Of a stretch of DNA of 17,159 bases, positions 1 to 14,749 are shown piece by piece. Where the stretch lies: positions 1-17,159 of the forward strand of contig DATNGC010000158.1 in the NCBI GenBank assembly GCA_035606075.1, written 5' to 3'. Numbering within the stretch: the stretch's first letter is position 1; every line of letters begins with the position of its first letter. The notes under the pieces were generated by a model. That model did no database searches, had not been told where the DNA came from, and saw only the letters and a list, made by a program, of their open reading frames with translations. Made by a program: the position numbers and the translations under genes. This DNA comes from Elusimicrobiota bacterium (lineage in GTDB: Bacteria; Elusimicrobiota; Elusimicrobia; UBA1565; UBA9628).

Positions 1-317
1 AAGTTCGGCATCGGCGGCGACGGCGCGGCCAAGGGCGCCGGCGAGAGCGGAGCGAGCGGGGCGGGAGTCTCGGCGACGGGCGCCGGCGGCGCGGCCCGCG
101 TCAGCCAGGCGTCGAGCTTCTCGCGAGCGGCCGGCTTCAGGCGGTGCAGAACGAGGCTGAGGTTGAAGCCCTCCGCCTGCGCGGGCGAGGGGCGGCCCAT
201 CAGGGCGCCGAATTTTTTCAGAAGCGCGGCGACGTCGGAGGGCCCGCCTTGGAGCAGGAGAACGTGACGGTCGGGATCGTCGGCGCTGGGCGTCGGCCGG
301 ATCTCCCACTTCTCCAT
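1..317 (-). CDS. hypothetical protein, N-terminal fragment (continues beyond window start)
   Basis: The minus-strand frame has strongly G/C-ending codons and translates MEKWEIRPTPSADDPDRHVLLLQGGPSDVAALLKKFGALMGRPSPAQAEGF... The ATG at 317..315 overlaps the TGA of the upstream gene (TGATG). It is absent from the ORF track because it runs off the window edge. Confidence 0.45.
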   Translation of the reverse strand, partial: MEKWEIRPTPSADDPDRHVLLLQGGPSDVAALLKKFGALMGRPSPAQAEGFNLSLVLHRLKPAAREKLDAWLTRAAPPAPVAETPAPLAPLSPAPLAAPSPPMPN

Positions 318-1168
318 CAGGCCTCGCCGCTCAGCAGCATCATGTCGACGATCACGTCGACGGCGGTGGACTTCTTCTGCACGTCAGCCGGCGCCACGGA
401 GCGGAACATGAGGCCGCCGCGCGCGCAGGCCTCCGACAAGCCCTCGATCTTGGCCGGCGGCCAGCCCTCGACGACCGCGAGCACGGCCACGGCCTTGGCG
501 TCGCGGGCCTTCTCGAACACGGCGGCCGGATCGCTGGAAGGGCTGAGCTCGGCGGACATGACGGAGCGCAGGAAGATCGGCTTCTTCGAGATGGTCCGGG
601 CCGCCTGCGAGAGATAGGCCGCGAAGCCGGCGCGCGCCTCGGCGCAGGCGAACGTGTAGACGTACGCGACGCGCCGGATCTGGTCCTTGGGCGTGTTCGG
701 CGGGATATCCTCCGGCGCGGCGGCGGGCACGGCGGCCGCGGGCGGCGTCGGAGCCGCGGGAGCCGGCGCGGGCGCGGCGGCGGCCGAGGCGGGCGCCGCG
801 GGCTTGGGCGGCTCGACGGGCTTCGGAGGCGCCGCCGCCGGCTTCGGGGGCTCGGCGGCCTTCGGCGCCTCGACGGGTTTCGGCGGCTCGATCGGCTTGG
901 GCGGCTCCTCTTTCTTGGCGGGCGTCGAGATGAAGCCCGGGCGCGGAGGAAGATCGATCTTCATCGACTCCGCGGCCGACGCCGGCGGCGCGACGACCTC
1001 GGGAGGCTTCGGCGGCTCGACGGGCTTGGGCGGCTCGGCGGGCTTCAAGGGTGCCGCCGGCGGGGCGGGCGCGGCCACCGCCTCATCGCCGATCCCGGAG
1101 AGGATCGCGTCGAGATCCGACAGGATCCCTTGGATATCCTCGGGCTGCTCTTTCCCCTCGTCCGCCAT
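317..1168 (-). CDS. Pro-rich repeat protein: acidic N-terminus, ~120-aa (E/A)PPKP-repeat linker and ~150-aa C-terminal globular domain of unknown function
   Basis: 283-aa ORF with consistently high GC3. The ATG at 1168 lies 2 nt after the pilT stop. Repeats of EPPKPVEPPKP, similar to a TonB-type EP/KP spacer, are encoded by tandem ~15-nt DNA repeats at 700-1070. The C-terminal domain was not recognised. Confidence 0.6.
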   Translation of the reverse strand: MADEGKEQPEDIQGILSDLDAILSGIGDEAVAAPAPPAAPLKPAEPPKPVEPPKPPEVVAPPASAAESMKIDLPPRPGFISTPAKKEEPPKPIEPPKPVEAPKAAEPPKPAAAPPKPVEPPKPAAPASAAAAPAPAPAAPTPPAAAVPAAAPEDIPPNTPKDQIRRVAYVYTFACAEARAGFAAYLSQAARTISKKPIFLRSVMSAELSPSSDPAAVFEKARDAKAVAVLAVVEGWPPAKIEGLSEACARGGLMFRSVAPADVQKKSTAVDVIVDMMLLSGEA

Positions 1169-1170
1169 CG

Positions 1171-2250
1171 TCAGCCGCCCGCGGCCAGGCCCTTCAAGCG
1201 CAGCGCGAGGTCCTCGGGATTCGTCGCTTCCTCGAGCACCGACGATTCGTCGATCTTACCTTCGGTGCAGAGACGCAGGAGATCCTGGTCGAACGTGTGC
1301 ATGCCGTAGTACGCGCCCCCCTCGAGCAGCTTGCGCAGCTCCGCGGTCTTGCCTTCGAGGAGATGGCGCCGCACCAGGCTGTTGCCGATCATGAGTTCGG
1401 TCGCGGGGTAGCGGGTCTTGCCGTCCTTCGACTTCACCAGGCGCTGACCGACGACGCCCTTGAGGCAGTTGGCGAGCTGCTGGCGCACCTGGCTGTGCTG
1501 ATGCGAGGGATGGGCGTCCACGATGCGGTCGACGGTCTGCGTCGCGTCGAGGGTGTGGATGGTCGAGACGACGAGATGGCCGGTCTCGGCGGCCGAGATG
1601 GCGGCCTGCATGGTCTCGAGGTCGCGCATCTCGCCGATGACGACGACGTCGGGGTCCTGGCGCAGAATGTGCTTCAGGGCGTTTCTGAAGGAGTGGGTGT
1701 CGAGGCCGACCTCTCTCTGCACGATCGTCGACTTCTGGTCGGTGTGGAAGTACTCGATCGGATCCTCGATGGTGATGATCCGGTGCTGGTGCGTGACGTT
1801 GATGTAGTTCAGGAAGCTGTTCAGCGTCGTGGTCTTGCCCGCGCCGGTGATGCCGGCGAACAGGATCAGGCCGCGGCTCTCGTTGCCGAGCTTGGTCAGG
1901 GCCTCGACGGGGAGGTTCAGCTCCTCGAACGTGCGCAGCTTGACCGGGACGACGCGCAAAGTGAGTCCGATGGAGCCCTTCTGCCGGTACACGTTGACGC
2001 GGAAGCGCGCGATGCCCTTGAGGCTGTAAGCGAGGTCGAGCTCCATCTCCTTGCCGAACGCCGCGGCCTGGTCCTTCGTCATGAGCTGCTCGGCGACGCT
2101 CTGGATGTCCTCCTCGCTCATCTTCTGGAGGTTGGTCGCCAGGATCATGGTGCCGCGCACGCGCAAGGCGGGAACGGAGTCGGCTTTGAAATGGATGTCC
2201 GAGATGTCCTTCTCGACCATCAGCGCCAGCAGGTTCTTGATGTCCACCAT
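1171..2250 (-). CDS. pilT: type IV pilus retraction ATPase PilT (twitching motility protein)
   Basis: Walker A GITGAGKTTTL, Walker B DVVVIGEMRD, His box GHLVVSTIHT and a PilT-type C-terminal motif NSLVRRHLLEGK are present. The N-terminus MVDIKNLL...SDIHF matches PilT. The ORF track starts at GTG 2265, but the in-frame ATG at 2250 fits the PilT N-terminus. Confidence 0.9.
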   Translation of the reverse strand: MVDIKNLLALMVEKDISDIHFKADSVPALRVRGTMILATNLQKMSEEDIQSVAEQLMTKDQAAAFGKEMELDLAYSLKGIARFRVNVYRQKGSIGLTLRVVPVKLRTFEELNLPVEALTKLGNESRGLILFAGITGAGKTTTLNSFLNYINVTHQHRIITIEDPIEYFHTDQKSTIVQREVGLDTHSFRNALKHILRQDPDVVVIGEMRDLETMQAAISAAETGHLVVSTIHTLDATQTVDRIVDAHPSHQHSQVRQQLANCLKGVVGQRLVKSKDGKTRYPATELMIGNSLVRRHLLEGKTAELRKLLEGGAYYGMHTFDQDLLRLCTEGKIDESSVLEEATNPEDLALRLKGLAAGG

Positions 2251-2337
2251 AGTTTTCGCAGTCACTCTCGAACGATCTCTATTCCTCTTAGCGTCAGCCA
2301 GTCCGAGGCTTGCGGACTGACGATCGAATTCTTCGGA

Positions 2338-2366
2338 ATTGTAAGCCGATTACCGCCGGGCGTCAA
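2338..2366 (-). promoter_or_regulatory. sigma70-like promoter for pilT (TTGACG-17nt-TACAAT)
   Basis: On the minus strand the sequence reads ttgacg cccggcggtaatcggct tacaat, with an exact 17-nt spacer. It lies ~80 nt upstream of the pilT ATG in an AT-richer stretch. A 7-bp stem hairpin (cagtccg/cggactg, 2299-2319) sits in the 5' UTR. Confidence 0.45.
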
Positions 2367-2392
2367 TCTCTTTTTTATTTCGCGCTCCGTGA

Positions 2393-2420
2393 GGAAAAGA
2401 CGGCCGGAGACCGGCGGCAG
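2393..2420 (-). terminator. weak candidate intrinsic terminator after the last BMC gene
   Basis: The minus strand reads gccgg-tct-ccggc followed by cgtctttt, about 120 nt after the BMC-H stop. The stem is short, so this call is tentative. Confidence 0.2.
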
Positions 2421-2540
2421 CGTTCTCGCCGGACGCGGCGCCGGCGGAACGGACGAAGCGGCCGCCGGCCCGGCTTTCGCCAGGCCGGCGACCAGCAGAT
2501 CGATGAGGTCGTCCCGGGTCAGCACGTCGCGGCGGGAGCG

Positions 2541-2828
2541 TTACTTCTCTAAGCGGATCGCGATGCGGTCCAGGTACTTCTCGAGGTCGTCGTGCGGGCG
2601 CGGGATCACGTGCACCGCGATCAGTTGGCCCACTTTGGAGGCGGCCGCGGCGGCGGCGTCCACGGCGGCGCGCACGGCGCCGACCTCTCCGCGGCACAGG
2701 GTGGTCACCAGGCCGTCCCCGACCTTCTCGTAGCCGAGCAGGCGCACCTTGGCCGACTTGCCCATCGCGTCCGAGGCCTCGATCATGCCGACGAAGCCTT
2801 TCGTCTCCACCATTCCCAGAGCTTCCAT
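2541..2828 (-). CDS. BMC-H shell protein (single Pfam00936-type domain, PduA/EutM-like), copy 1
   Basis: This 95-aa protein is [57 protein letters not shown]...VHVIPRPH. It is the only meaningful part of the 511-aa Arg-rich track ORF 2541..4076. A good SD sequence (aaggaga) lies upstream. Confidence 0.9.
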
Positions 2829-2839
2829 GCGTTTCTCCT

Positions 2840-3148
2840 TTACTCGAACTCCTCGTCGGTCAGGCCGCGGTCCTCGGCGCCCGTCTCCAGGACCGCGTTG
2901 CAGCGCGTGCAGCGCCGCGGGGTGCTGTACGTCCGCACGCAGGCGTCGTCCTCGGGCCACCACTCCTCGAAGAACATCTCGACCTTCTTGTGGCACTTGA
3001 GGCAGAACTTCTCCAGCCCCGCGCCGCAGCCCGCGCAGAACTTCGGCAGCGGCTGCCCCTCGTGGGTGTGCATGATCGCGGCGCACGCCCCGCACTGCAG
3101 GTCGATGGTGATCTTGTACTTCGCCGGCTGCTTGTCGTCTTTGGCCAT
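2840..3148 (-). CDS. small Cys-rich protein with four CxxC motifs (putative double zinc ribbon) and an acidic C-terminal tail; unknown function
   Basis: This 102-aa ORF has CxxC pairs at C19/22, C38/41, C49/52 and C80/83. The third positions are G/C-rich. It is tightly packed between deoC and BMC-H, and an SD sequence (agaggga) is present. Confidence 0.6.
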
Positions 3149-3160
3149 ATCTGGGTCCCT

Positions 3161-4148
<988 letters not shown>

Positions 4149-4156
<8 letters not shown>

Positions 4157-4445
4157 ATTTTTTCACCTTTCCGCCGGAGACGACCGAGTCCACGATGCCC
4201 ACGATCACGGTCCGGATCGGCGCCTTGTCGTCGTGCAGCACCGAGCGCGCCGACCCGCCCTCGTCCATCACCAGAACGATCGAGCCCGGCCCGGAGCCGG
4301 TCACGTACTCCACGGCCATCTGCGCGTCGCCGAGCGGCTTCTCCGTCTGTGGATCGATAGGCCGCACGAGGAGAAGGCGCTTGTCGCACAGAGAGCAGTG
4401 CTTGCGCGTCCCCCACACGTTGCCGACGACTTCCGCTACAAACAT
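4149..4445 (-). CDS. BMC-P vertex pentamer protein (EutN/CcmL/PduN family), copy 1
   Basis: The protein reads [16 protein letters not shown]...LLLVRPI...[20 protein letters not shown]...IVGIVDSV. Its last 8 nt overlap the deoC start (ATGAATGA). Confidence 0.85.
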
Positions 4446-4455
4446 TCTTAATCTT

Positions 4456-4671
4456 TCAGCCGGCGAGAGCGACCTCGAACGGCTTTTTCTTCAAATTGCT
4501 GATCTTCAGAACCGAAAACCCGAGCACACGGCCCTCCGCATCGACTTTTTGCATGACTTGCTCATGTTTTGTCTCGCGAAAATAACCGGGTGTCTTGGAA
4601 TCGAACAGGACTTCGAGAAAATCTCCTTCAGGATCGAACCACACCTTCATCCTCGCTTTCACTTTGGCCAT
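4456..4671 (-). CDS. DUF2283-like small protein (putative antitoxin partner)
   Basis: This 71-aa protein is MAKVKARMKVWFDPEGDFLEVLFDSKTPGYFRETKH...GRVLGFSVL, the DUF2283 pattern (MK..YD.E.D.LYI). The real start is the ATG at 4671; the longer 152-aa track ORF has a junk N-terminus. It overlaps the upstream gene by 13 nt. Confidence 0.55.
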   Translation of the reverse strand: MAKVKARMKVWFDPEGDFLEVLFDSKTPGYFRETKHEQVMQKVDAEGRVLGFSVLKISNLKKKPFEVALAG

Positions 4672-4979
4672 AATCTCGGACCTCGTTTGATCGTGTCGGT
4701 GTAATACGCCGTCAAGACGAACGCATCGTGCGAGCGAATCTTGACCACGACGCAAAGATATTTGTCGCCGACGGGACTTCCAAAGATATAACGATAGTAT
4801 AGCCGCGCCTCGCCATCGGCGCGAGACTGAACGACCTGCTCGGGATGAAGAAGAATTCGACCGATGTCGGAAAGGCTTCGGTACATTTCTGGGTGTTCTT
4901 GGATATGATCCCACCTTTCATCGGTCAGCCGAATGCTTCGCCCTTCGTAGTCGTGAAAGACTTTCAAGGCGCCGCCCAC
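4659..4979 (-). CDS. DUF4258-like small protein (putative toxin partner of the downstream DUF2283-like gene)
   Basis: This ORF of ~100 aa is MGGALKVFHDYEGRSIRLTDERWDHIQEHPEM...KYLCVVVKIRSHDAFVLTAYYTD. It has a GTG start at 4979 or a TTG at 4967. Its size, its 13-nt overlap with the DUF2283-like gene and its low GC fit a TA module. Family assignment is from memory. Confidence 0.45.
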   Translation of the reverse strand: MGGALKVFHDYEGRSIRLTDERWDHIQEHPEMYRSLSDIGRILLHPEQVVQSRADGEARLYYRYIFGSPVGDKYLCVVVKIRSHDAFVLTAYYTDTIKRGPRLWPK

Positions 4980-5323
4980 GTTGCCTTCATTCCAGATGGA
5001 ATCACCAGCGTCCAGGCAATACGGGGTTCCAGTAGCCCCGTCACGTCACTTCTCGGGATAATATATAGGCATGGCGTCGTTTCGATGTCCTCAACCAGAT
5101 AAACGAAGTAGTCCATATGCTTCTGAATCGCTCTGAAGTGATGCATCTCCATCAATCGCCAGCCGGCGCTCTTCTTTCCGACCCCTTTTACTTCAATCTT
5201 CCGACCAATGGACTCAACATCGTATCCCTGCCCTTGTTTAATTGCGCGCGCGGTGCGACCTTGTTTCCTCTCGTATTCGATCACGAATTCAACGGCCTTT
5301 GTCTCTATCTCTTTGTTGGTCAT
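4964..5323 (-). CDS. small PD-(D/E)xK nuclease-fold protein (DUF3883 / Mrr-cat-like)
   Basis: This 119-aa protein reads ...AVEFVIEYERKQG...GYDVESIGRKIEVKG..., which gives an E...D...E-x-K arrangement typical of restriction-endonuclease-like folds. The gene is low GC. Confidence 0.45.
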   Translation of the reverse strand: MTNKEIETKAVEFVIEYERKQGRTARAIKQGQGYDVESIGRKIEVKGVGKKSAGWRLMEMHHFRAIQKHMDYFVYLVEDIETTPCLYIIPRSDVTGLLEPRIAWTLVIPSGMKATWAAP

Positions 5324-5365
5324 GCAATCCGTCCTGTCATGGCTGAATCTAGAGATATTACGCGG

Positions 5366-6046
5366 CTATTCGTCCCGCAGTTTGCTTTCGAATGCTGCCT
5401 TGTCTTTCTGTTCGGATAGGCTCGTCCTTTTCTCATCATCCTTTTCTTTTGACCAGCGAACCGCCATCAAATCCTTATCTATAAAAATGACGCCGCGTTC
5501 CCAGTATGTCTTCTCATTGCGAGGTATTTTCTGCTCATACAGCATCATTTCCCGATTGCCATCCCGCCAAAATGCCGCCTGACTGCATTTCGGCGTAACA
5601 GGGTTTCCTTCATATCGATTTGAAAAGGAGCTTACCAGCATCCAGCAATAAACAAGCGGGTCCGCGTGAGCGGCATTGTTGGGGCCATATTTTTCAGACT
5701 TAAACTTCAACAATCCGCTGAATCCGTACTGTCCGGCCTTGTGGCCATACCGTCCCAGCATCTTGTCAATTCGATGGTTGATGACAGTGTAATACACGTC
5801 GACATATGGCTCTGGTATTACGTCGCCCTGCGAGGACAAAAGCGTGTAAATCGAGGCTATGCCATCGGCGTCTTCCTTTGACGTCGGCATACCGACTTCA
5901 TACTTGCCGATGCCCATTCTTAATTTCCTATTAGGCACATCCACGGCATAAGCAACGAGTTGCCCGAAAGTTAACAGAAAAATCAGTTTGGCATATCGCT
6001 TCCCTGTCTGCCCGCGGTTAATCGAACTCATTCCCAAGGAAATCAT
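5366..6046 (-). CDS. secreted hypothetical protein with an N-terminal signal peptide
   Basis: This 226-aa ORF begins MISLGMSSINRGQTGKRYAKLIFLLTFGQLVAYA|VD, a signal-peptidase-I-type leader. The gene is low GC. Its ATG overlaps the TGA of BMC-P copy 2 (ATGA). No family was recognised. Confidence 0.45.
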   Translation of the reverse strand: MISLGMSSINRGQTGKRYAKLIFLLTFGQLVAYAVDVPNRKLRMGIGKYEVGMPTSKEDADGIASIYTLLSSQGDVIPEPYVDVYYTVINHRIDKMLGRYGHKAGQYGFSGLLKFKSEKYGPNNAAHADPLVYCWMLVSSFSNRYEGNPVTPKCSQAAFWRDGNREMMLYEQKIPRNEKTYWERGVIFIDKDLMAVRWSKEKDDEKRTSLSEQKDKAAFESKLRDE

Positions 6047-6318
6047 CGGAATTTTTTGACCTGATGTCCGTCGACGATCCCCACGATCGCCGCGTCGACG
6101 GGCGGGGCGTCCGGGAAGGCCACGGCGGCGTCCCGGGACGCCACCCAGAATACTTTTTCCGAAGAGCCCGCGCCGACGGCGTCGGCCGCCACGATGGGGT
6201 CCCCGATCGCGGATTCGTCCTCCCAGCGCAGCGGTTGGATCAACAATAGGGTCTTTTTGTCCACAGCCGGGTCCTGGCGGGAGCAGAAGACGCGGCCGAT
6301 CACGCGGGCGAGCTTCAT
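6043..6318 (-). CDS. BMC-P vertex pentamer protein (EutN/PduN family), copy 2
   Basis: This 91-aa protein is MKLARVIGRVFCSRQDPAVDKKTLLLIQPL...VAADAVGAG...AAIVGIVDGHQV. It is the genuine C-terminal part of the 399-aa Arg-rich track ORF 6043..7242. Its ATG overlaps the rpiB TGA (ATGA). Confidence 0.85.
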   Translation of the reverse strand: MKLARVIGRVFCSRQDPAVDKKTLLLIQPLRWEDESAIGDPIVAADAVGAGSSEKVFWVASRDAAVAFPDAPPVDAAIVGIVDGHQVKKFR

Positions 6319-6764
6319 CGCGAGTACTTCCTCTCGATGGCCGCGACCTTGGCGAGGCGGCCCTCGTGGCGGCCGCCCTCGAACGGAGTGGAGAAGAACA
6401 CCTTCACGATCTCGCCGTGGATCAGCTCGCCGTGCGACTTGCCGCCGATGCACAGGACGTTCGCGTCGTCGTGCTGCGCCGCCATGCGCGCCGACACCGA
6501 ATCGTAGGCCGCCACCGCGCGGACTCCCGGGACTTTGTTCGCGGCCATGCACACCGCCCCGCCGAAGCCGTCGATCAGCACGCCCTTGTCGAACTCGCGC
6601 CGCGCGACCGCCTCGGCCACGAGCTGGGCCACGTCGGGGTAGTCCACCGCGTCGAGCGAGTGACAGCCGAAGTCGACCACCTCGTGGCCCATTTTTTGAA
6701 TGGCCTTCTTGATGAAGTCCTTCGCGGAGAATCCGCCGTGGTCGCTGCCGATGACGACTTTCAT
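6315..6764 (-). CDS. rpiB: ribose-5-phosphate isomerase B (RpiB/LacAB family)
   Basis: The protein MKVVIGSDHGGF...DYPDVAQLVAEAV...GVLIDGFGGAVCMAANKVPGVRAV...ANVLCIGGK...EGGRHEGRLAKVAAIE is closely colinear with E. coli RpiB, as recalled. Confidence 0.9.
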   Translation of the reverse strand: MKVVIGSDHGGFSAKDFIKKAIQKMGHEVVDFGCHSLDAVDYPDVAQLVAEAVARREFDKGVLIDGFGGAVCMAANKVPGVRAVAAYDSVSARMAAQHDDANVLCIGGKSHGELIHGEIVKVFFSTPFEGGRHEGRLAKVAAIERKYSR

Positions 6765-7316
6765 TTATTTCCCGATGGTCGAGAGAAGCTGCGCGTCCGC
6801 CTGCGGGATCACGACGTGCGTCACGAGCTGGTCCGGGCGCAGGGACGACACCGCGGCCGCGAGCGCCGAGCGCACGTCGCCGACCTCGCCGCACAGAGTG
6901 AAGTACCCCTTGCCGCCGGGGACCACGGTCTTGACCTCGAGGATGTGGATCGACGCGGCCTTCGCGGCGGCGTCGGCGGCCTTGACCGTCGCGACCGCCT
7001 CCTTCGTCTCGACGATGCCAACCGCGTTGAGGACGTCGACGGGGATGCGCTTGTCGAGCGCCGAGATCACCTGCGAGTGGACGTTGCGGATCAGGACCTC
7101 GTCGACGAGCGTCTTGCCCATCACCTCTTTGCCGGCGCGGAGCGAGGACTCGACCTCGCCGACCGGGCCGGTGATGAGGATGACGTATTTGCCCCGAGCG
7201 ATCACGGCGGTCTTGGCGAGCTTGACCGCGGCCATCTTGCACATCGCGTCCGAGGCCTCGATGCCTTTGGCGATCGAGTTTCCTTCCAGGAATCCGACGG
7301 CGAGGTTGGCGAGCAT
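6765..7316 (-). CDS. BMC-T shell protein, tandem Pfam00936 domains (PduT-like); the pore cysteine of PduT is apparently replaced by Ala
   Basis: This 183-aa protein is MLANLAVGFLEGNSIAKGIEASDAMCKMAAVKL...LDKRIPVDVLNAVGIVETKEAVATVKAADAAAK...VVIPQAD and aligns by eye with PduT. The PduT motif TICPGK is VIARGK here. The real ATG is at 7316; the 220-aa track ORF carries 37 junk N-terminal residues. TAA is followed directly by the rpiB ATG. Confidence 0.85.
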   Translation of the reverse strand: MLANLAVGFLEGNSIAKGIEASDAMCKMAAVKLAKTAVIARGKYVILITGPVGEVESSLRAGKEVMGKTLVDEVLIRNVHSQVISALDKRIPVDVLNAVGIVETKEAVATVKAADAAAKAASIHILEVKTVVPGGKGYFTLCGEVGDVRSALAAAVSSLRPDQLVTHVVIPQADAQLLSTIGK

Positions 7317-7320
7317 GTCT

Positions 7321-8349
7321 TTACACTCCCAGCGCCTGACGCGTTGTGGCGTCGGCGGTCTTTTCGTTGAACCAGTTCGGGTACATGGGCACGGGCGCGG
7401 TCGCGGCGTCCAGCGTCGAGACCTCATCCTTCGTCAGTTCCAGATCGGCGGCTTTCAAGTTGTCTTCGAGCTGGGACATCTTGCTCGCTCCGACGAGGAT
7501 CGTGGTCGCCCAATCCTTCGAGAGCAGCCAGGCCAAGGCGACGGACGCCACCGAGGCGCCTTTTTTCTTCGCGATCTTCCCCATCGCGTCGATCAGGTCG
7601 TACGCCTTTTCCTTGTCCGTGGGCAGGAAGTCGAAATCCTTGAGCCGGCCCGAGCCGCCCGTCGGGTCCTTGCGCGTGTACCGGCCTGAGAGGAAGCCCC
7701 CCGCGAGCGGCGACCAGACCATCATCCCCACGCCCGCGGCGCGCATGAACGGGACCGTCTCGTGCTCGACGTCGCGCCCCACCAGCGACGCGTACATCTG
7801 CGCCGCGCGGAAGCGCGTCCAGCCCTTTTCTTTCTGAGTCGCGACCGCCAGCGCCGCCTGCCAGGCGGGCCAGTTGCTGTAGCCGACGTAGCGGACCTTG
7901 CCCGAGCGCACGAGGTCCTCGAGCGCGCGCAAGGTCTCGTCGAGCGGAGTGAACGGGTCCACGCGGTGAACGACGAAGAGGTCGAGCCAGTCCGTGCCCA
8001 GGCGCTTGAGGCTGCCCTCGGCCTGCATGATCAGGTTGCGCGCCGAGAGGCCCGTGCGCAGCTGCGAGTCGGAGGCGCGGAAGCCCGCCTTCGTGCAGAT
8101 TGCGATCTCCGCGCGCTTAGCGCCCAGAGCCTTGCCCAGGATCGTCTCGGACTCGCCGCCCGCGTACATGTCGGCGGAGTCGAAGAGATTGATGCCGGCA
8201 TCGAGACAGCGCCCGACGAGCGCGTTCGCCTCTTTCTGACCCGTCTTCCAGACGTTGCCCATCGGGCCTTGGCCCGAGCCGAACGTCATCGAGCCGAACG
8301 AGAGACGGGAGACGACGAGACCGGTGTCGCCGAGTCGAGCGTATTTCAT
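7321..8349 (-). CDS. aldo/keto reductase family oxidoreductase (Tas/YajO-like)
   Basis: This 342-aa protein is MKYARLGDTGLVVSRLSFGSMTFG...DSADMYAGGESE...KRLGTDWLDLFVVHRVD...GKVRYVGYSNW... It is the real C-terminal part of the 559-aa track ORF. Its ATG overlaps the aldehyde dehydrogenase TGA (ATGA). Confidence 0.85.
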   Translation of the reverse strand: MKYARLGDTGLVVSRLSFGSMTFGSGQGPMGNVWKTGQKEANALVGRCLDAGINLFDSADMYAGGESETILGKALGAKRAEIAICTKAGFRASDSQLRTGLSARNLIMQAEGSLKRLGTDWLDLFVVHRVDPFTPLDETLRALEDLVRSGKVRYVGYSNWPAWQAALAVATQKEKGWTRFRAAQMYASLVGRDVEHETVPFMRAAGVGMMVWSPLAGGFLSGRYTRKDPTGGSGRLKDFDFLPTDKEKAYDLIDAMGKIAKKKGASVASVALAWLLSKDWATTILVGASKMSQLEDNLKAADLELTKDEVSTLDAATAPVPMYPNWFNEKTADATTRQALGV

Positions 8350-9800
8350 CACGCGATCCTGAAGTAGCCCACGAGCGAGCAGTGCAGCGGCCGCGCGAAG
8401 TGGCTGGTCTTGGTCAGCCCGTCGCCGGTCGGCGTGCCGATCGACATCGTGGCGTAGCCCTCTCCCAGGCCGAGGCCGTAGAGAGTGGGCGCGTTCTTGA
8501 CGTAGATGGAGCACTGCATGCGCCGCGCCATCTTGGTCAGGTTGCCGACGTTCGTGGAGTGCATGGCCGCCGTGTGGCGATGCCCGCCCTCGGCCTCGAC
8601 GGCGAGAGCGATCGCCGCGTCCACGTCGGGCGCGACCGTGACCGGCAGGACCGGCATCAGCTGCTCGGTCCAGACGAGCGTGTGGTCGTTGGGCACCTCT
8701 CCCCACAGCAGGCGCACGCCGTCCGGGACGGTCAGGCCGATCCCCTTGGCGATGAACGCCGCGTCCTTGCCCACGTAGTCGCGGTTGAGGACGGGATCCT
8801 TGCAGCCCTTGCCGCCGACCTTGATGACCACCTTCATGAGCTGATCCATCTGCTCGCGCGAGAGCTCGAAGGCGCGCGAGTCGGCGCGCATCGCGGCGAG
8901 GAAGCGGTCGCGCGCGGCGGCCGTCACGATGACTTCTTTCTCGGCGGTACAGAGAACGTTGTTGTCGAACGACGCGCCGAAAATGACGTCTTGAGCGCAC
9001 TTCGGAAAAATCGCCGTTTCGTCCACGACGACAGGGGGATTTCCAGGCCCGGCAGCAATCGTTTTACAAGTCTTGCCCACCGTCATCGCAACCTTGACGA
9101 TGGCGGGGCCGCCCGTGACCATGTTCACGCGCGCGTCGGGGTGAGCGAGCAGGTTCTTGGTGTTGTCCTGCGAGGGCTTCTCGAACGTCGTGATCAGGCC
9201 GCGCGGCGCGCCCGCGGCGACCGCGGCCGCCGCGAGCAGGCGCATCGTCTCCAGACAGACCTTGAACGACGCCGGGTGCGGCGCGAAAACGACGGAGTTT
9301 CCGGCCGAGAGGATGGAGAGGCCGTTGTTGATGATCGTCGCGGCCGGGTTCGTCGACGGCGTGATCGCCGCCACGACGCCGTACGGCGCGTACTCGACCA
9401 AGGTGAGGCCCTTGTCGCCGGTGAAGCACTTGGAGGTCAGGTCCTCGACGCCCGGCGTGCGCGTCGCGCAGACCAGGTTCTTCTGGACCTTGTCCTCCCA
9501 GCGGCCCATGCCGGTCTCCTCGCGCGCCATCTTGGCGAGGCGCTCGGCGTTGGCGATGGCCGCCTTGCGCATCGCGCGGATCACCTCGCGCCGCAGCTCG
9601 AGGCCCTGGTCCTGGAAGACCGCCTGCGCGCGCTTGGCCGCCTGCACTGCTTCGTCGACGGTCGGAAAGAGCACGCCGTCGCCGGCCCCCGCGGACGAAA
9701 CAGGAGCGGAGGGGCTCGCGGTCACGACCGAGCCGAGTTCCTCCTTCTCGAGGCGCTTGAGAACCTCGGCGATGACGCGGGCGATCTCCTCGCTCTGCAT
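8349..9800 (-). CDS. CoA-acylating aldehyde dehydrogenase (PduP/EutE family) with N-terminal encapsulation-peptide-like helix
   Basis: This 483-aa protein starts with the amphipathic helix MQSEEIARVIAEVLKRLEKEE, followed by a Ser/Ala/Gly linker. The core has ITPSTNPAATIINN and the VLCTAEKE catalytic-Cys region typical of BMC aldehyde dehydrogenases. Confidence 0.9.
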   Translation of the reverse strand: MQSEEIARVIAEVLKRLEKEELGSVVTASPSAPVSSAGAGDGVLFPTVDEAVQAAKRAQAVFQDQGLELRREVIRAMRKAAIANAERLAKMAREETGMGRWEDKVQKNLVCATRTPGVEDLTSKCFTGDKGLTLVEYAPYGVVAAITPSTNPAATIINNGLSILSAGNSVVFAPHPASFKVCLETMRLLAAAAVAAGAPRGLITTFEKPSQDNTKNLLAHPDARVNMVTGGPAIVKVAMTVGKTCKTIAAGPGNPPVVVDETAIFPKCAQDVIFGASFDNNVLCTAEKEVIVTAAARDRFLAAMRADSRAFELSREQMDQLMKVVIKVGGKGCKDPVLNRDYVGKDAAFIAKGIGLTVPDGVRLLWGEVPNDHTLVWTEQLMPVLPVTVAPDVDAAIALAVEAEGGHRHTAAMHSTNVGNLTKMARRMQCSIYVKNAPTLYGLGLGEGYATMSIGTPTGDGLTKTSHFARPLHCSLVGYFRIA

Positions 9801-9806
9801 GGGCTT

Positions 9807-10118
9807 TTACCTGTTCGCGGCTGCGTCGCTGGACTTCTTGAAGGCGGTCTTGCCGGACTGCTCGACGGTGTCCACGATCGCGAAGATCACGGCGTCCACC
9901 GGTCGGCCTTCGGTGCGGGTGGTCTGACGGGCGCTCGACCCCTGCACGATCAAGACGAGCTCCCCCTCGCCGGCGCCGACGGAGTCGACGGCGACGAGAG
10001 GGTTGCCCTTCGAGGCGCCGGCCAAGTCCACGGGCTGAACCAGCAGCAGCTTGGACCCGACCAGCTTCTCGTCCTTGAGGGTGCAGACGACGGTGCCCGT
10101 GACGCGGGCGAAGATCAT
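9807..10118 (-). CDS. BMC-P vertex pentamer protein (EutN/PduN family), copy 3
   Basis: This 103-aa protein is MIFARVTGTVVCTLKDEKLVGSKLLLVQPV...VAVDSVGAGEGELVLIVQGSSARQ...AVIFAIVD. Confidence 0.85.
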   Translation of the reverse strand: MIFARVTGTVVCTLKDEKLVGSKLLLVQPVDLAGASKGNPLVAVDSVGAGEGELVLIVQGSSARQTTRTEGRPVDAVIFAIVDTVEQSGKTAFKKSSDAAANR

Positions 10119-10137
10119 ATGGATCTCGCTCGGGGCC

Positions 10138-10434
10138 TTACTTCTTGCGCGCCAGGTTCTCGGGGAGCGAGATCGGCATCTTCCCCTCGAGGTCCGGGTG
10201 CGGCTGCGGGATCACATGCACGGCGATCAGCTCGCCGACCTTCTGCGCGGCGGCGGCGCCGGAGTCGCAGGCGGCCTTGCACGCGGCGACCTCGCCGCGG
10301 AACAGCACGGTCACGAGTCCCGTCCCCACCTTTTCATAACCGACGATGCGGACGTCGGCGGCCTTCACGGCGGCGTCGGCGGCTTCCACGCAGGCGACGA
10401 GGCCGCGCGTCTCGATCATTCCGAGTGCGTTCAT
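10138..10434 (-). CDS. BMC-H shell protein (PduA/EutM-like), copy 2
   Basis: This 98-aa protein is [55 protein letters not shown]...VHVIPQPH. An SD sequence (aaggagag) lies 5 nt before the ATG. Confidence 0.9.
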
Positions 10435-10446
10435 GTTCTCTCCTTG

Positions 10447-10507
10447 GGGTCAGGCTTTGACTTTTTGACTTATTCGGTGAATAAGTCAAAAAGTCAAAGC
10501 CTGACCC
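10447..10507. repeat. 61-bp perfect palindrome (29-bp arms, 3-nt centre), AT-rich, between pduL and BMC-H
   Basis: The sequence is gggtcaggctttgactttttgacttattc-ggt-gaataagtcaaaaagtcaaagcctgaccc. The arms pair perfectly, and each contains two TTGAC(T) units. It ends 8 nt before the SD of the BMC-H gene, and no U-tract follows on the transcribed strand. Confidence 0.8.
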
Positions 10508-10511
10508 TTCT

Positions 10512-11147
10512 TTAAGCTATGTGCACGAAATCGCCGGTTTTGATGCCGGCGGAGTTGGCCTCGTCGGTGTCGACGTGGAACTCCAGGCTGTACTTGTCCG
10601 AAACGCGGACGATGCAGTCTTCGAAAACGGTGGAGCGTCCGCCGCCGGTGCCGCAGCGCACGCGCACGAGCTCGCCGCTGGTCATCCCCCACTTCTTCGC
10701 CTCGTCGGGCGAGAAATGGACGTGGCGCTGGGCGATGATGACGCCCTCTTTGATCTCGACTTTGCCGGCCGGGCCGATCAGGATCGCGCCGGCGGACCCC
10801 TTCACGTCGCCGGATTCCCGCACGGGGGGCTTCAATCCGATGGATATAGCGTCGGTCACCGCGAGCTCGATCTGGGTATTGGCGCGATACGGAGCCACCA
10901 GGCGGACCTTCTTCACCACTCCCTTGGGCCCCTGCACGTCGATGAGTTCCTCGGCGGCGTAGAAGCCGGGCTGTTTGATGTCTTTGACTTTCTTGGGGGA
11001 AGCCGCGGCGCCGAACAAAATCTTGAAGTGAGCCTCGGTCAAGTGACAATGTTTATTGGACACGCCGACGGGGATGTCGAGCTTGGAGCGCTGGAGGCGC
11101 TTCTCGATCTCGGAGGCCAGCCCGGCGATCTGCGTCGGGGAGATCAC
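10512..11147 (-). CDS. pduL: phosphate acyltransferase PduL (two PF06130-type repeats) with N-terminal encapsulation-peptide-like helix
   Basis: The protein has ...VGVSNKHCHL...QPGFYA...TDA..IG..P.R.SGD..GS.G..L.GP.G...AQRHVHFSPDEA...DTDEANSAGI. The likely start is GTG 11147, giving MISPTQIAGLASEIEKRLQRS, and it overlaps the tpiA stop (GTGA). The 596-aa track ORF is mostly wrong-frame junk upstream of this. Confidence 0.85.
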   Translation of the reverse strand: MISPTQIAGLASEIEKRLQRSKLDIPVGVSNKHCHLTEAHFKILFGAAASPKKVKDIKQPGFYAAEELIDVQGPKGVVKKVRLVAPYRANTQIELAVTDAISIGLKPPVRESGDVKGSAGAILIGPAGKVEIKEGVIIAQRHVHFSPDEAKKWGMTSGELVRVRCGTGGGRSTVFEDCIVRVSDKYSLEFHVDTDEANSAGIKTGDFVHIA

Positions 11148-11911
11148 GCGGGCTTGAACCCCATGATGCGCAGGAATGCGTCCTTCTTGAGGCTCGCGCC
11201 GCCGACCAGCGCGCCGTCCACGTCGGGCTGCGCCATCAGCGAGTCCACGTTTTCGGCCGTGACCGAGCCGCCGTAGAGGATCCGGATGCCGGACGCGAAA
11301 TTCTTGCCGTGCAGCCGCTCGAGCTGCTGGCGCGTGAACAGGTGCGCCTCCTGCGCCTGGGCCGGCGTGGCCGTCTTGCCCGTGCCGATCGCCCAGACCG
11401 GCTCGTAGGCGATGACGACCTTGGAGAGGTCGGCGGGCGCGAAGCCCTTGAGCCCGTTTGCGATCTGCGTCTCCAGCACGCGCCACGTCTTCTGCGTCTC
11501 GCGCTCGTCGAGCGTCTCGCCGATGCAGACGACGGGCGTCAGGCCCGCCTTGAGCGCCGCGCCCAGCTTCTTGTTGACGTTCTCGTCGGTGTCCCCGAAG
11601 AGCTTGCGCCGCTCCGAGTGGCCGATCAAAGTCATCGCGCAGCCGGCGTCGAGCAGCATGTTGGCCGAGATCTCGCCCGTGAACGCGCCCGACGCCTCCC
11701 AGTAGACGTCCTGGGCGCCCAGCCGCACCGGGCTGCCGCGCAGGACCTCGGCGACCACGGTGATGGCGGTGAAGGGCACGAAAACGGCGACCTCGCCGGA
11801 GGCGCCGGCGGCGCCGTCCTTGACCGCCCGGGCCAGCTCGACGGACTGGGCGAGCGTCAGGTTCATCTTCCAATTTCCGGCCAACAGGGGGCGGCGCAGA
11901 GGGGAGCTCAT
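11144..11911 (-). CDS. tpiA: triosephosphate isomerase
   Basis: The protein has ...RRPLLAGNWKMN...IGHSERR...VVCIGE...YEPVWAIGTGKTA...ILYGGSV. The ATG at 11911 gives MSSPLRRPLLAGNWKMN. The track ORF extends to GTG 11947, so the start is ambiguous within 11911-11947. Confidence 0.9.
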   Translation of the reverse strand: MSSPLRRPLLAGNWKMNLTLAQSVELARAVKDGAAGASGEVAVFVPFTAITVVAEVLRGSPVRLGAQDVYWEASGAFTGEISANMLLDAGCAMTLIGHSERRKLFGDTDENVNKKLGAALKAGLTPVVCIGETLDERETQKTWRVLETQIANGLKGFAPADLSKVVIAYEPVWAIGTGKTATPAQAQEAHLFTRQQLERLHGKNFASGIRILYGGSVTAENVDSLMAQPDVDGALVGGASLKKDAFLRIMGFKPA

Positions 11912-11929
11912 GGGTTCTTTCGGGTCCTT

Positions 11930-11948
11930 TGTGGACATATTGTCCACA
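11930..11948. promoter_or_regulatory. perfect 8-3-8 inverted repeat TGTGGACA-TAT-TGTCCACA (candidate operator) between the promoter and the tpiA RBS
   Basis: This exact palindrome lies ~20-40 nt downstream of the predicted transcription start and ~20 nt upstream of the tpiA ATG at 11911. A near-identical copy occurs at 14901..14919. Confidence 0.55.
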
Positions 11949-11976
11949 CCGTCTTTCCAGGGACGTTCCAGGCCGT

Positions 11977-12005
11977 ATTCTACTCCGAAGACGCGCCCAA
12001 GTCAA
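11977..12005 (-). promoter_or_regulatory. sigma70-like promoter for the tpiA-BMC operon (TTGACT-17nt-TAGAAT)
   Basis: The minus strand reads ttgact tgggcgcgtcttcggag tagaat, with an exact 17-nt spacer. It sits in the only sizeable intergenic gap (11912-12064) upstream of tpiA. Confidence 0.5.
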
Positions 12006-12064
12006 TGATGGAATGTCGCTCGGAATGGATATTTCCGAAGTCTTCCCGCAACGTCCCGGCGGGC

Positions 12065-12661
12065 CTAAAAGTCCGAGAAGGGGACGACGACCTCGCCCAG
12101 CTGGCCGGGGTTGTATTCCCCTCCCAGCACGGACTTGCGGGGGCGCTTGACGCGCACCGCGTAGACGCCGGCCTTGCGCGCCTGCAGCAGCTCCCGGTCG
12201 GTCGAGCCGACGAACAGGACGTAGCGGCCGTCCTGCAGGTGGAGGTGGAGCTCCTCGGGGTCGGAGACGAACGTGAACCCGCGCGGCGCCAGGTGGCGCC
12301 ACTCCTTCTTCAGCGCCTCGCCGCCGGTCGCCTGCCGCTCCGCGAGGATCAGGATGTGGAAGCCGAACAGTCGGGCGACGCCCGCCGCGGCGTAGGGCAG
12401 GAGCTTGGGGCTCTCGAGATCGTAGGAGGTGTTGATCGTCTTCCAGTAATCGGGGCCGTGCGCCTGCGCGGAGGCCGCTCCCTGCGCCTTCTCGTAGGCG
12501 GCCGAGGAGTTCACGAGCGCGTCGTCGTAGGCGAAGGCGACGCCCAGGCGCGCGATCGTCACGAGGCTGAAGATCAGCCCCCAGACGCTCATCAGCGCGA
12601 GGATCTTCTTCGTCGTGGTCCAGGCCTTCTCGACTTTCTCGCGCGCATCCTTCAGAACCAT
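12065..12661 (-). CDS. membrane-anchored class B acid phosphatase-like protein (AphA / HAD subfamily IIIB-like), possibly catalytically degenerate
   Basis: This 198-aa protein has an N-terminal TM helix (ILALMSVWGLIFSLVTIARLGVAF). The C-terminal half aligns by eye with AphA: YVLFVGSTDRELLQARKAGVYAVRVKRPRKS...GEVVVPFSDF matches [30 protein letters not shown]...GEEVIVNSEY. The motif I position reads AYDDA instead of DIDDT. Its ATG lies 1 nt after the 5'-nucleotidase stop. Confidence 0.5.
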   Translation of the reverse strand: MVLKDAREKVEKAWTTTKKILALMSVWGLIFSLVTIARLGVAFAYDDALVNSSAAYEKAQGAASAQAHGPDYWKTINTSYDLESPKLLPYAAAGVARLFGFHILILAERQATGGEALKKEWRHLAPRGFTFVSDPEELHLHLQDGRYVLFVGSTDRELLQARKAGVYAVRVKRPRKSVLGGEYNPGQLGEVVVPFSDF

Positions 12662-12662
12662 G

Positions 12663-14183
12663 TCATTCCCCCAAGGAGATCAAGCGCCCGGCCGGAGGCG
12701 GGGCGATCGTCTTCTGCTTCTCGGCGCACGCGCGCAGGGCGTCGCGCGCGAGCAGTCCGGTGTCCCGCGGCGAGGCCGACGAAAACTCCTCGTAGCTGCC
12801 CGCCAGGAAATCGAGCGTCGCGACCGAGTACGTCTTAGCGTCGTCGAGCGGCGCCCCGCCGACCGTGACCCTGCCGAGGCGCGAGCCGCGCGGCTTGAGC
12901 GGGGATATCTCGGCCGTCATGCCGCCGATCTGCGCGATCTTCGGCGAGCCGACGACGTGGTCGAGGGCGGCGCGCAGCTTGGCCCCGCTCATGCGCAGGG
13001 TGACCACGGTGTCGTCGAAAGGCATGGCCTCGAACAAGCGGCGCAGGGTGACGGGCCCCGCCGGGATGTCCGCGCGGATGCCGCCGCCGTTCATGATGAA
13101 CGCGTCCGCGTCCTCCGTCGCCTTGAAGCAATCCGCCATCCAAGAGCCCAGGCCGGACTCGCCGGCGCCGGCGCGGTCGAGGTCCCGCGTCGCGGTCGCG
13201 ACGACGAGCCTGAACGCCTCGCCGAGGTCCTTCTCGCGCCGGTCGACGATCGCCTTCATCGCGGGGTCCTGTCCGAGGCGGTCGACCCACAGGTCGAGAA
13301 GCTCGTCGGAGGACGCCGTCACGCGCCTCGTCGCGGGATCGATCTTGAGGGTCGCCCGGCCGACCTTGAAGAAGTAGGACCCGGCCTGGACGATCAAGGT
13401 CCCGTGGGCCGGATCGCGCCACGCGCGGGACAAGGTCGTGTGGGTGTGGCCGCCGACGATCAGGTCGATGCCTTCCACCTCGCGCGCGAGCGTCTGGTCG
13501 CCCTCGAAGGGCGGCTTGTCCGGCGCCTCGAAGCCGACGTGCGTGACCGCGATGATCACGTCGGCGCCCTCCTTCCTCAGCGCCGCGACCTGGTCGCGGG
13601 CCTCGTCGGTCTCGCGGCGGAAGGTCAGGCCCGCGATCTTGCCGGGGACCTCGAGCCGGTCCATGTGCGACGTGATCAGGCCGAAGATCCCGAACTTGAC
13701 CCCGGAGACCTCCTTGACGATCCTCTGTCTCGTCCAGGAGACGTGCTTGCCGGACGAATCGTAGATATTGGCGGCGAGGACCGGCATCGCCATCTTCGCG
13801 TTGAGCGCGGCCGCCGAGGACCAGCCCGCGTCGAACTCGTGGTTGCCCATCTCGACGGCGTCGTAGCCCATCGCGTTGAACGCCTCGGCGACGGCCTCGC
13901 CGTGCGTCGTCGAGCCCTCGGGCGTGCCCTGCCACCAGTCGCCCGCGTCGAGGACGAGGCGGGGATTGGAGTCCCTGTTCAGCAGCGACTTCATCGCCGC
14001 CGCGCCGCCGATCGGACGGCCGTTGCGCTTGTCGGTCTGCGGCATGATCCAGCCGTGCACGTCGTTGGTGTGGTAGACCCGCACGACGATCGGCGCGGGC
14101 ACGGCGGCGGCGCCTTGGTCCTGCGCCCGGACGAACGGACAGGCGAGGGCCAGCGCGAGGGCCGGCAGGCCGAGCCGTCTCAC
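12663..14183 (-). CDS. secreted bifunctional metallophosphatase / 5'-nucleotidase (UshA family)
   Basis: This 506-aa protein has a signal peptide MRRLGLPALALALACPFVRAQDQ, metallophosphoesterase motifs (YHTNDVHG, GNHEFD, GGHTH) and a 5'-nucleotidase C-terminal domain. It has a GTG start that overlaps the upstream stop (GTGA). Confidence 0.8.
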   Translation of the reverse strand: MRRLGLPALALALACPFVRAQDQGAAAVPAPIVVRVYHTNDVHGWIMPQTDKRNGRPIGGAAAMKSLLNRDSNPRLVLDAGDWWQGTPEGSTTHGEAVAEAFNAMGYDAVEMGNHEFDAGWSSAAALNAKMAMPVLAANIYDSSGKHVSWTRQRIVKEVSGVKFGIFGLITSHMDRLEVPGKIAGLTFRRETDEARDQVAALRKEGADVIIAVTHVGFEAPDKPPFEGDQTLAREVEGIDLIVGGHTHTTLSRAWRDPAHGTLIVQAGSYFFKVGRATLKIDPATRRVTASSDELLDLWVDRLGQDPAMKAIVDRREKDLGEAFRLVVATATRDLDRAGAGESGLGSWMADCFKATEDADAFIMNGGGIRADIPAGPVTLRRLFEAMPFDDTVVTLRMSGAKLRAALDHVVGSPKIAQIGGMTAEISPLKPRGSRLGRVTVGGAPLDDAKTYSVATLDFLAGSYEEFSSASPRDTGLLARDALRACAEKQKTIAPPPAGRLISLGE

Positions 14184-14749
14184 TCGGCGAGGCTCCCCGC
14201 CAGCGCGTCGCAGGCCTGCTGCAGGCCCTCGGCGGCCGAGGACAGCCGCGAGGCGACCTCGCTGCGCTTGACCGCCACGACGAAGAACGGCGACTCGCGG
14301 GCCGCGTCCAGCGCTGCGCGGCGGCGGCGCTCGACGTCAGCGGCCCAGCGCTTGGCGTCGTCGAGGGCGTTCGCGCGCGCCGAGCCGGCGACGGCGAGGG
14401 CGCGGGCCAGGGACTTCGCGCCGGAGCGCAGGCCGTCGGCCATCGCGGCGAACTCGGGATCGGCGCCGAGCCCCCACTGCGTGGCGTCGGACACCGCTCC
14501 GACGGCGTGCTCGACGGCCTCGCGCAGGGCGAACGAGTAGTCCGCCGCGCCGGCCGCGGCGGCTCCGGCGCGTCCGCGCAGGCCCGCGACCGCGCGCTCG
14601 CGCGCGCCGCGCGAGCGCAGGCGCGCCGTCCGCGCGGCCGACAGCGCGGCGGGCTCGGGCCGGCGGAACCAGCGCGCCGCGGCGTCGGCGGCGTCGGCCA
14701 GCAATTGCGCCTGTCCGCGCGAGGGCGCCTCCGACGATTTTCGGGCCAT
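14180..14749 (-). CDS. hypothetical Ala/Arg-rich protein (predicted all-helical)
   Basis: This 189-aa ORF has consistently G/C-ending codons and an ATG start at 14749. No recognisable motifs were found. Confidence 0.4.
   Translation of the reverse strand: MARKSSEAPSRGQAQLLADAADAAARWFRRPEPAALSAARTARLRSRGARERAVAGLRGRAGAAAAGAADYSFALREAVEHAVGAVSDATQWGLGADPEFAAMADGLRSGAKSLARALAVAGSARANALDDAKRWAADVERRRRAALDAARESPFFVVAVKRSEVASRLSSAAEGLQQACDALAGSLAE

Follow-up and report, generated by a model that had tools for sequence, protein, structure and literature searches.

The window, a stretch of 17,159 nucleotides from a bacterium of the phylum Elusimicrobiota, has a GC content of 66.4% (somewhat below the 70% that the original prediction assigned to the genome) and carries a microcompartment operon on its minus strand. 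Along this strand the genes are ordered TIM, PduL, a palindrome, BMC-H, BMC-P, aldehyde dehydrogenase, aldo/keto reductase, more shell genes, RpiB and the DeoC aldolase. Positions 2541-12000 encode PduL, an aldehyde dehydrogenase, a DeoC-type aldolase, RpiB, TIM and an aldo/keto reductase, along with BMC-H, BMC-P and a 183-aa BMC-domain protein. This locus resembles the sugar-phosphate-utilising type of microcompartment, here in Elusimicrobiota, going by the names of homologues. A single sigma-70-like match, TTGACT-17-TAGAAT, lies within positions 10100-12800. It is found upstream of the TIM gene and, as a consensus match, probably marks the start of the TIM-pduL-shell transcript that carries the palindrome. 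The features around the palindrome are as follows.

11977-12005, minus strand: sigma-70-like match TTGACT-17-TAGAAT (10/12, consensus match only), upstream of the TIM gene
11144-11947, minus strand: TIM gene
10512-11147, minus strand: pduL, phosphotransacylase, 211 aa (Pfam PTAC, E = 5.8e-66; also a gene call in contig L012), stop codon TAA at 10512-10514
10446-10508, no strand: whole element, GGGGTCAGGCTTTGACTTTTTGACTTAT.. loop ..ATAAGTCAAAAAGTCAAAGCCTGACCCC, delimited by the family consensus; a head-to-head repeat doublet, REPIN-like
10479-10507, no strand: pduL-side arm, the perfect reverse complement of the BMC-H-side arm
10476-10478, no strand: 3-nt centre (loop), the variable part among family copies
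10447-10475, no strand: BMC-H-side arm, plus-strand sequence GGGTCAGGCTTTGACTTTTTGACTTATTC; G10446 completes its outer end to GGGGTCAG
10438-10443, minus strand: GGAGAG, the Shine-Dalgarno core of BMC-H, read from the sequence; it adjoins the pduL stop directly in relatives with an empty site
10138-10434, minus strand: BMC-H shell protein gene, 98 aa (Pfam BMC, E = 2.1e-27), immediately downstream of the element
9807-10118, minus strand: BMC-P gene

The original prediction described a perfect 61-bp palindrome with a 29-bp stem and a 3-nt loop, and exactly this structure was re-derived: two arms of 29 nt each (10447-10475 and 10479-10507), 100% complementary, with 3 nt between them. No second long perfect inverted repeat is present across the 17-kb window, and a 22-nt piece of the arm is expected to give 0 matches by chance (0 in 200 shuffles). 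The arms had also been called AT-rich with a doubled unit, which agrees with a GC content of ~41% by an eye count and with the presence of TTTGACTT twice in the arm. RNA folding, which had been proposed as a check, gave -54 kcal/mol for the minus-strand RNA of the palindrome versus -18.6 +/- 3.2 kcal/mol for shuffled sequences (z = -11). On the coding strand, which is the minus strand, the palindrome begins 4 nt past the TAA of pduL. At its other end the GGAGAG core lies 3 nt beyond the palindrome and the ATG of BMC-H (10434-10432) lies 12 nt beyond it. The palindrome was thus correctly placed between the pduL stop and the Shine-Dalgarno sequence and ATG of BMC-H, but the distance of 8 nt given to the ribosome-binding site was too long. 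The stem is followed by CCCCAAGGAGAG on the coding strand, with no U-tract, as had been noted. A search of the palindrome against Rfam returned only generic miRNA-precursor hairpin models, all of them far below their gathering scores.

Perfect palindromes of this length can arise as fold-back chimeras during assembly. De Bruijn assemblers break or fold back at such sequences, and contigs of this kind exist: one starts inside the palindrome (L013, positions 1-28), one ends in the reverse complement of its own flank (L032) and others stop inside it (L033-L040). An assembly artefact is nevertheless almost inconceivable here, because both flanks are correct and in frame, with the pduL stop on one side and the Shine-Dalgarno sequence and ATG of BMC-H on the other, and because the same structure recurs in a contig of a separate assembly (L012), in one of another project (L031) and at 12 further loci. 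The first of these, ENA contig k141_804966 of ERZ27256675, matches window positions 1-14451 with two mismatches (window 11648 and 4227) and contains the palindrome with both flanks. The window runs 2.7 kb past this contig and reaches rplM and rpsI, which encode ribosomal proteins. The JGI and ENA versions of the transposase locus described below (L028 and L029) show no difference across 6,858 bp, and since contigs are identical among the JGI, ENA and Logan resources, Ga0134128, ERZ27256675 and SRR6185512 are probably one sample assembled three times. For the same reason L013 was rejected as an independent sample. The contigs that end in the palindrome or fold at it therefore indicate that such elements systematically fragment assemblies just after pduL, and the element accounts for the metagenome assemblies that break at this point.

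The arm belongs to a dispersed repeat family. A search for further copies, which the original prediction had suggested, was carried out with the 21-mer GTCAGGCTTTGACTTTTTGAC. It matched 14 JGI metagenome stretches on contigs with 65-74% GC; the soil-type metagenome Ga0134128 accounts for 12 of these. The window arms are identical or near-identical to the arms in these 14 stretches. In 12 of the 14 the repeats form close head-to-head doublets, GGGGTCAGGCTTTGACTTTTTGACTTAT .. ATAAGTCAAAAAGTCAAAGCCTGACCCC, with arms mostly identical to the consensus. One of the remaining two is incomplete at a sequence end, and the other is a pair 875 bp apart, which is the transposase locus. Outside that locus, all complete loci (12/12) are doublets. 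The family consensus GGGG...CCCC extends the element in the window to 10446-10508, where the outermost base on the pduL side has changed. Within the family the centre may lack a loop altogether or form a spacer of up to ~30 nt, and it is frequently self-complementary itself. Every copy found is intergenic, and the stop codon of a flanking gene lies 0-15 nt from the element in 13 of the 14 stretches and likewise in the window. Family copies also occur between convergent genes and beside many unrelated genes. Around the copy in the window and those in the 14 stretches, neither a target-site duplication nor a common flanking motif is visible, and the arm has 0 matches in viral contigs.

The individual repeat unit is not a hairpin of the REP kind. 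A single arm folds into only a 4-bp stem (-2.1 kcal/mol), and the single arm of the sister variant described below forms no stem. The GTAG and CGTC tags are absent at both ends of the repeat. The arms of the family and the repeats flanking the transposase start with the outer motif GGGGTCAG, which fits the pattern GGGGWSAS. A 20-nt piece of the arm was also scanned against a representative-genome set that does not include the source species, and its 11 matches were rejected as chance: they are single-arm matches in low-GC, unrelated genomes, mostly within TTTTGAC tandem runs or promoter-like contexts. The 20-mer TTTGACTTTTTGACTTATTC is found in an imperfect inverted repeat in two Selenomonadaceae metagenome-assembled genomes (MAGs) and one unclassified bacterium, all low-GC (L001 ~1700-1800, L009 ~7520-7600 and L010 ~400-500), where it overlaps a promoter-like site, TTGACT..TATTAT or TTGACT..TATAAT. 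This resemblance is probably due to chance, and the family is probably a different one.

The widely spaced pair of arms encloses the putative partner of the family. On a 65-kb contig (L018) the arms lie at 8330-8357 (plus) and 9205-9232 (minus), 875 bp apart and inverted, around an ORF of 285 aa. Its product matches Pfam Y1_Tnp with 46.7 bits (cutoff 23) and NCBIfam REP_Tyr_transpos ("REP-associated tyrosine transposase") with 78.6 bits, 1.4 below the cutoff of 80. The HUH motif (N-H-F-H) and the tyrosine motif Y-I-H-x-N-P are invariant across 14 transposase homologues. In the databases, homologues in Elusimicrobiota MAGs are named "REP element-mobilizing transposase RayT" or "REP-associated tyrosine transposase"; PduL homologues bear the same phylum name. 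Judged by these matches and motifs, the 285-aa protein is a Y1/HUH transposase of the RAYT/TIRYT type. Its C-terminal extension is conserved among the homologues and matches HTH_38 (E = 6.4e-4) and HTH_23 (E = 9e-3), both weakly and below the Pfam gathering scores. A phmmer search of the transposase against PDB sequences gave no match at E <= 0.01. By its motifs and domains, as opposed to phylogeny, the enzyme appears to belong to a RAYT group that differs from that of the classical REPIN-RAYT systems.

The repeat at the 3' end of the transposase gene (L018, L028 and L029) matches the window arm with 0 mismatches over 28 nt. The end of the gene runs into this repeat, which encodes the last residues of the transposase (L018 8314-8357; L028 3815-3858). 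In homologues the protein tail follows the repeat variant, for example ..SEKSESLTP with the TTTCAC variant. The transposase gene also overlaps the convergent thymidine kinase (TK) gene by ~10 nt. Inverted flanking repeats are found around the transposase in L028, L029, L030, L043 and L044-46 as well, and the identical protein is encoded on a 48-kb contig of ENA ERZ27256675 and in Logan SRR6185512. Because the window contig and the transposase contig share an assembly, are similar in GC content and agree at 28/28 positions between the arm and the 3' repeat, we infer that they come from one genome. This putatively single-copy transposase probably spreads the hairpin family.

The transposase occupies a fixed site. 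The arrangement PPIase-transposase-TK is syntenic in five lineages, the window-type lineage and four sisters, with TK proteins 91-96% identical. Orthologues of the transposase at 75%, 68% and 57% identity are found at this same site, each with its own repeat variant. A fixed PPIase/TK locus with one repeat per lineage resembles the behaviour of domesticated single-copy RAYTs, for which vertical inheritance at a fixed site has been described (PMC5581495). One orthologue (L049) has a clear 3' repeat copy, AATAGTGAAAAAAGTGAAAGCCTGACCCC, and a degenerate 5' copy. This 3' repeat is the variant also found in L031, a contig from a sister sample of the same metagenome series.

A variant palindrome is present in L031 (PduL 89% identical) at the same pduL/BMC-H junction as in the window. 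It is perfect but different, GGGGTCAGGCTTTCACTTTTTTCACTTTTTT / AAAAAAGTGAAAAAAGTGAAAGCCTGACCCC, with TTTCAC replacing TTTGAC. The two palindromes differ at about five positions per arm, and every one of these differences is mirrored in the other arm. Nine more contigs of the L031 lineage stop or fold back within the palindrome. Since L049 shares both metagenome series and repeat variant with L031, the palindrome matches the transposase-flanking repeat of its own lineage; the copies of this variant that were seen are the palindrome at the BMC locus and the transposase-flanking repeat. This lineage-matched palindrome at one orthologous junction is the most interesting point of the analysis.

The element is absent from six orthologous junctions with PduL proteins 88-92% identical (L041, L042, L047, L048, L050 and L051). 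At these empty junctions, which read GCG TAA GGAGAGAAC..ATG (..GCG TAA GGAGAGAACCAGAAC ATG.. or similar), the stop codon is immediately followed by the Shine-Dalgarno sequence. The window and L031 loci share derived flanks (GCT TAA A.. and ..CAAGGAGAGAAC ATG). In a neighbour-joining tree of pduL the window and L031 are paired via a very short branch; raw identity puts L031 nearer the empty L041. The shared derived flanks favour a single ancestral insertion that would later have been homogenised in place. It is possible that two independent insertions took place, or precise losses at the empty sites. If the two elements are orthologous, lineage-matched perfect palindromes with mirrored changes would imply that resident hairpins are rewritten in place. 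A broader proposal, which we hold only tentatively and think more probably wrong than right by a wide measure, is that the same element was inherited in both lineages, that its copies were rewritten by transposase-driven replacement or gene conversion, and that it may have persisted as a post-transcriptional valve for shell:enzyme stoichiometry.

A miniature mobile or REP-like element was among the roles considered in the original prediction, and the dispersed copies, the arm-flanked RAYT-type transposase, the empty orthologous sites and the lineage-specific variants all speak for it. The palindrome is very likely a non-autonomous mobile hairpin, a REPIN-like inverted-repeat doublet mobilised by a transposase of the RAYT/TIRYT type, and primarily selfish or neutral. 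It would consist of two copies of a ~28-nt repeat joined head to head, like a REPIN or a dimer of TIRtron terminal inverted repeats (TIRs). The presumed mobilising enzyme is the repeat-flanked Y1/HUH transposase encoded elsewhere in probably the same genome, between the PPIase and thymidine kinase genes. Like IS200/IS605 and RAYT enzymes, it would be expected to recognise the hairpin in single-stranded DNA, cut it and transpose it with no duplication of the target. The element may have inserted into, or be kept in, the very short gap that separates the pduL stop from the Shine-Dalgarno sequence of BMC-H. Because six relatives manage without it, the element does not seem to be required for the operon. 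The empty sites could represent loss instead of the state before insertion.

Whatever its origin, the element would have consequences for the RNA. Because it is presumably transcribed inside the operon, the transcript should carry a very stable hairpin. A stable 3' stem shields the upstream mRNA from 3'-to-5' exonucleases, and REPs are known to stabilise upstream mRNA. The hairpin would most plausibly act on the pduL cistron, as a barrier to 3'-to-5' decay, and could obstruct ribosomes that terminate on pduL 4 nt ahead of it. In PMC12306157 (citing Liang et al. 2015), a REP of E. coli located <=15 nt from the stop codon is reported to stall terminating ribosomes and lower translation of the upstream gene. 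Such effects are documented for the upstream gene and not as a boost of the downstream gene, whereas the role first suggested for the palindrome concerned the downstream BMC-H. That role, a 5'-stabilising or processing stem-loop that raises shell stoichiometry, may still have arisen as a by-product of the insertion. On the BMC-H side the element would place a structured spacer right before the ribosome-binding site, and free initiation may be hindered because the stem abuts the Shine-Dalgarno sequence. To terminate on pduL, a ribosome would need to open the base of the stem, and this could preserve coupling to BMC-H. The perfect 29-bp RNA duplex is also a potential RNase III substrate. Any effect of the element on RNA or on the enzyme-to-shell ratio is thus an expectation from its structure and position.

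These expectations raise the question of whether a former mobile repeat has been exapted as a regulatory RNA hairpin and is now retained to tune the ratio of PduL to shell protein. Cutting by RNase III or a barrier to decay could give pduL and BMC-H unequal half-lives, or termination on pduL could gate initiation on BMC-H. A perfect RNA duplex of more than ~22 bp is a canonical RNase III substrate, and the 29-bp duplex exceeds this length. The very stable fold (-54 kcal/mol) is consistent with such a role, as is the distance of 4 nt from the stop, within the 15 nt at which E. coli REPs lower upstream translation according to PMC12306157 (citing Liang et al. 2015). Occupation of the exact junction in two lineages with shared derived flanks also suggests long retention. 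However, the same operon lacks the element in six close relatives, where stop and Shine-Dalgarno sequence are adjacent, the arms equal the dispersed family exactly with no locus-specific adaptation, and the same element is found beside many unrelated genes. We therefore consider exaptation improbable, if worth keeping in mind.

The remaining functional readings fare worse. A strong hairpin just past a stop codon could be an intrinsic or bidirectional terminator that limits how much transcription continues from the enzyme genes to the shell genes, and A-runs and T-runs do flank some family copies between convergent genes (L017, L026 and L027). In the window, however, the CCCCAAGGAGAG that follows the stem has no U-tract, a terminator scan does not report the palindrome, and a stop to transcription ahead of the gene for the major shell protein would leave the microcompartment non-functional, so that we regard a terminator as very unlikely. 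Even less credence can be given to a dyad operator with an internal promoter, in which the doubled TTGAC units would be the binding sites of a transcription factor and the transcript of the shell genes would begin within the palindrome. The original prediction had listed this role, pointing to TTGACT-17-AATAAG on the coding strand. The AT-rich tract in a GC-rich genome and the TTGACT..TATTAT promoter-like contexts of a similar 20-mer at the unrelated Selenomonadaceae loci would accord with it. The sigma-70 scan found no site in 10447-10507, its sole match being the one upstream of the TIM gene, and AATAAG lacks the conserved final T of a -10 hexamer. Moreover, 58 perfectly paired bases far exceed what an operator needs, and the same sequence is found between convergent genes and at many unrelated loci and is absent from the relatives. 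The promoter reading is accordingly not supported.

The mobile hairpin combines features of several known systems. TIRtrons, whose enzymes are known as TIRYTs, are RAYT-like genes flanked by long inverted repeats as opposed to REP hairpins, with the outer motif GGGGWSAS; in some cases the repeats extend over the 3' end of the gene, and in some they make up moderately abundant families arranged as dimers (Di Nocera et al. 2013, PMC3733652). TIRYTs have been equated with TnpA-Y1 subclass 2.1, or RAYT group 1, whose members are long and carry a C-terminal HTH-like domain (Quentin et al. 2018, PMC6006769, which gives the same motif). The locus described here is similar in that a Y1/HUH gene is flanked by long non-hairpin inverted repeats that begin with GGGGTCAG, the last part of the gene lies in its 3' repeat, the 285-aa protein has a C-terminal extension that may be HTH-like (weak HTH matches) and the dispersed family often takes the form of dimers. 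It differs in its Elusimicrobiota host and in having AT-rich repeats in a ~66% GC genome. In addition, nearly all copies here are tight head-to-head doublets with perfect 28-29-bp stems, and subclass 2.1 has been reported as mostly without associated repeat families (PMC6006769). The phylum Elusimicrobiota is not mentioned in PMC5581495, PMC6006769 or PMC12306157.

The REPIN-RAYT systems of Pseudomonas and Enterobacteria (Bertels & Rainey 2011, PMC3116915; PMC3337134; Bertels et al. 2017, PMC5581495) share with the element the inverted hairpin doublets dispersed between genes, a transposase flanked by the same repeat and, here apparently, inherited vertically at a fixed locus, and joint differences in repeat and transposase between lineages. 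Here, however, neither an imperfect palindrome nor a GTAG tag is present in the repeat unit, there is little or no spacer (from no loop to ~30 nt), and the transposase has an extra C-terminal domain. With neither a palindromic single arm nor a GTAG or CGTC tag, the element is not what we regard as a textbook REP, and we file it as a TIRtron doublet; as far as its sequence tells, it is REPIN-like in working and a TIRtron repeat doublet in membership.

An intercistronic, transcribed and stable stem-loop just past a stop codon is also typical of the REP/BIME elements of E. coli, for which malE-malF is an example inside an operon. On this likeness, protection of the upstream mRNA and hindrance of terminating ribosomes would be expected here too. 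The stem in the window is much longer, perfect and abuts the Shine-Dalgarno sequence of the next gene, and because of its length and perfection RNase III could cut it. Placement just after a gene agrees with REPs more widely, which are reported mainly downstream of genes (PMC3733652). MITEs of DDE transposases such as the Correia elements are likewise short, non-coding, TIR-bounded, dispersed and often co-transcribed. Their resemblance to the element ends there: no target-site duplication is visible, the partner is a Y1/HUH and not a DDE enzyme, and the interior is almost absent.

This result gives what seemed an odd regulatory palindrome an identity that is concrete and can be checked, and extends hairpin populations of the REPIN/TIRtron type, with their putatively single-copy tyrosine transposases, to uncultured high-GC Elusimicrobiota. 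The empty sites, the occupied site and the lineage-matched variant at a single junction form a natural series for the co-divergence of repeat and transposase. They also provide a natural comparison, with and without a stable intercistronic hairpin, for the enzyme-to-shell ratio of a microcompartment operon.

A separate feature of this operon is a 1.6-kb island of low GC content (47-55% versus ~66%) at window positions 4400-6046, between two BMC-P genes. It contains three minus-strand ORFs: one of 226 aa without a family, one of 119 aa that has a NOV_C domain and in PADLOC matches the C-terminus of TmtA weakly, and a small one with a sub-threshold match to DUF2283. The island looks like a horizontally acquired insert, possibly related to defence or toxins.
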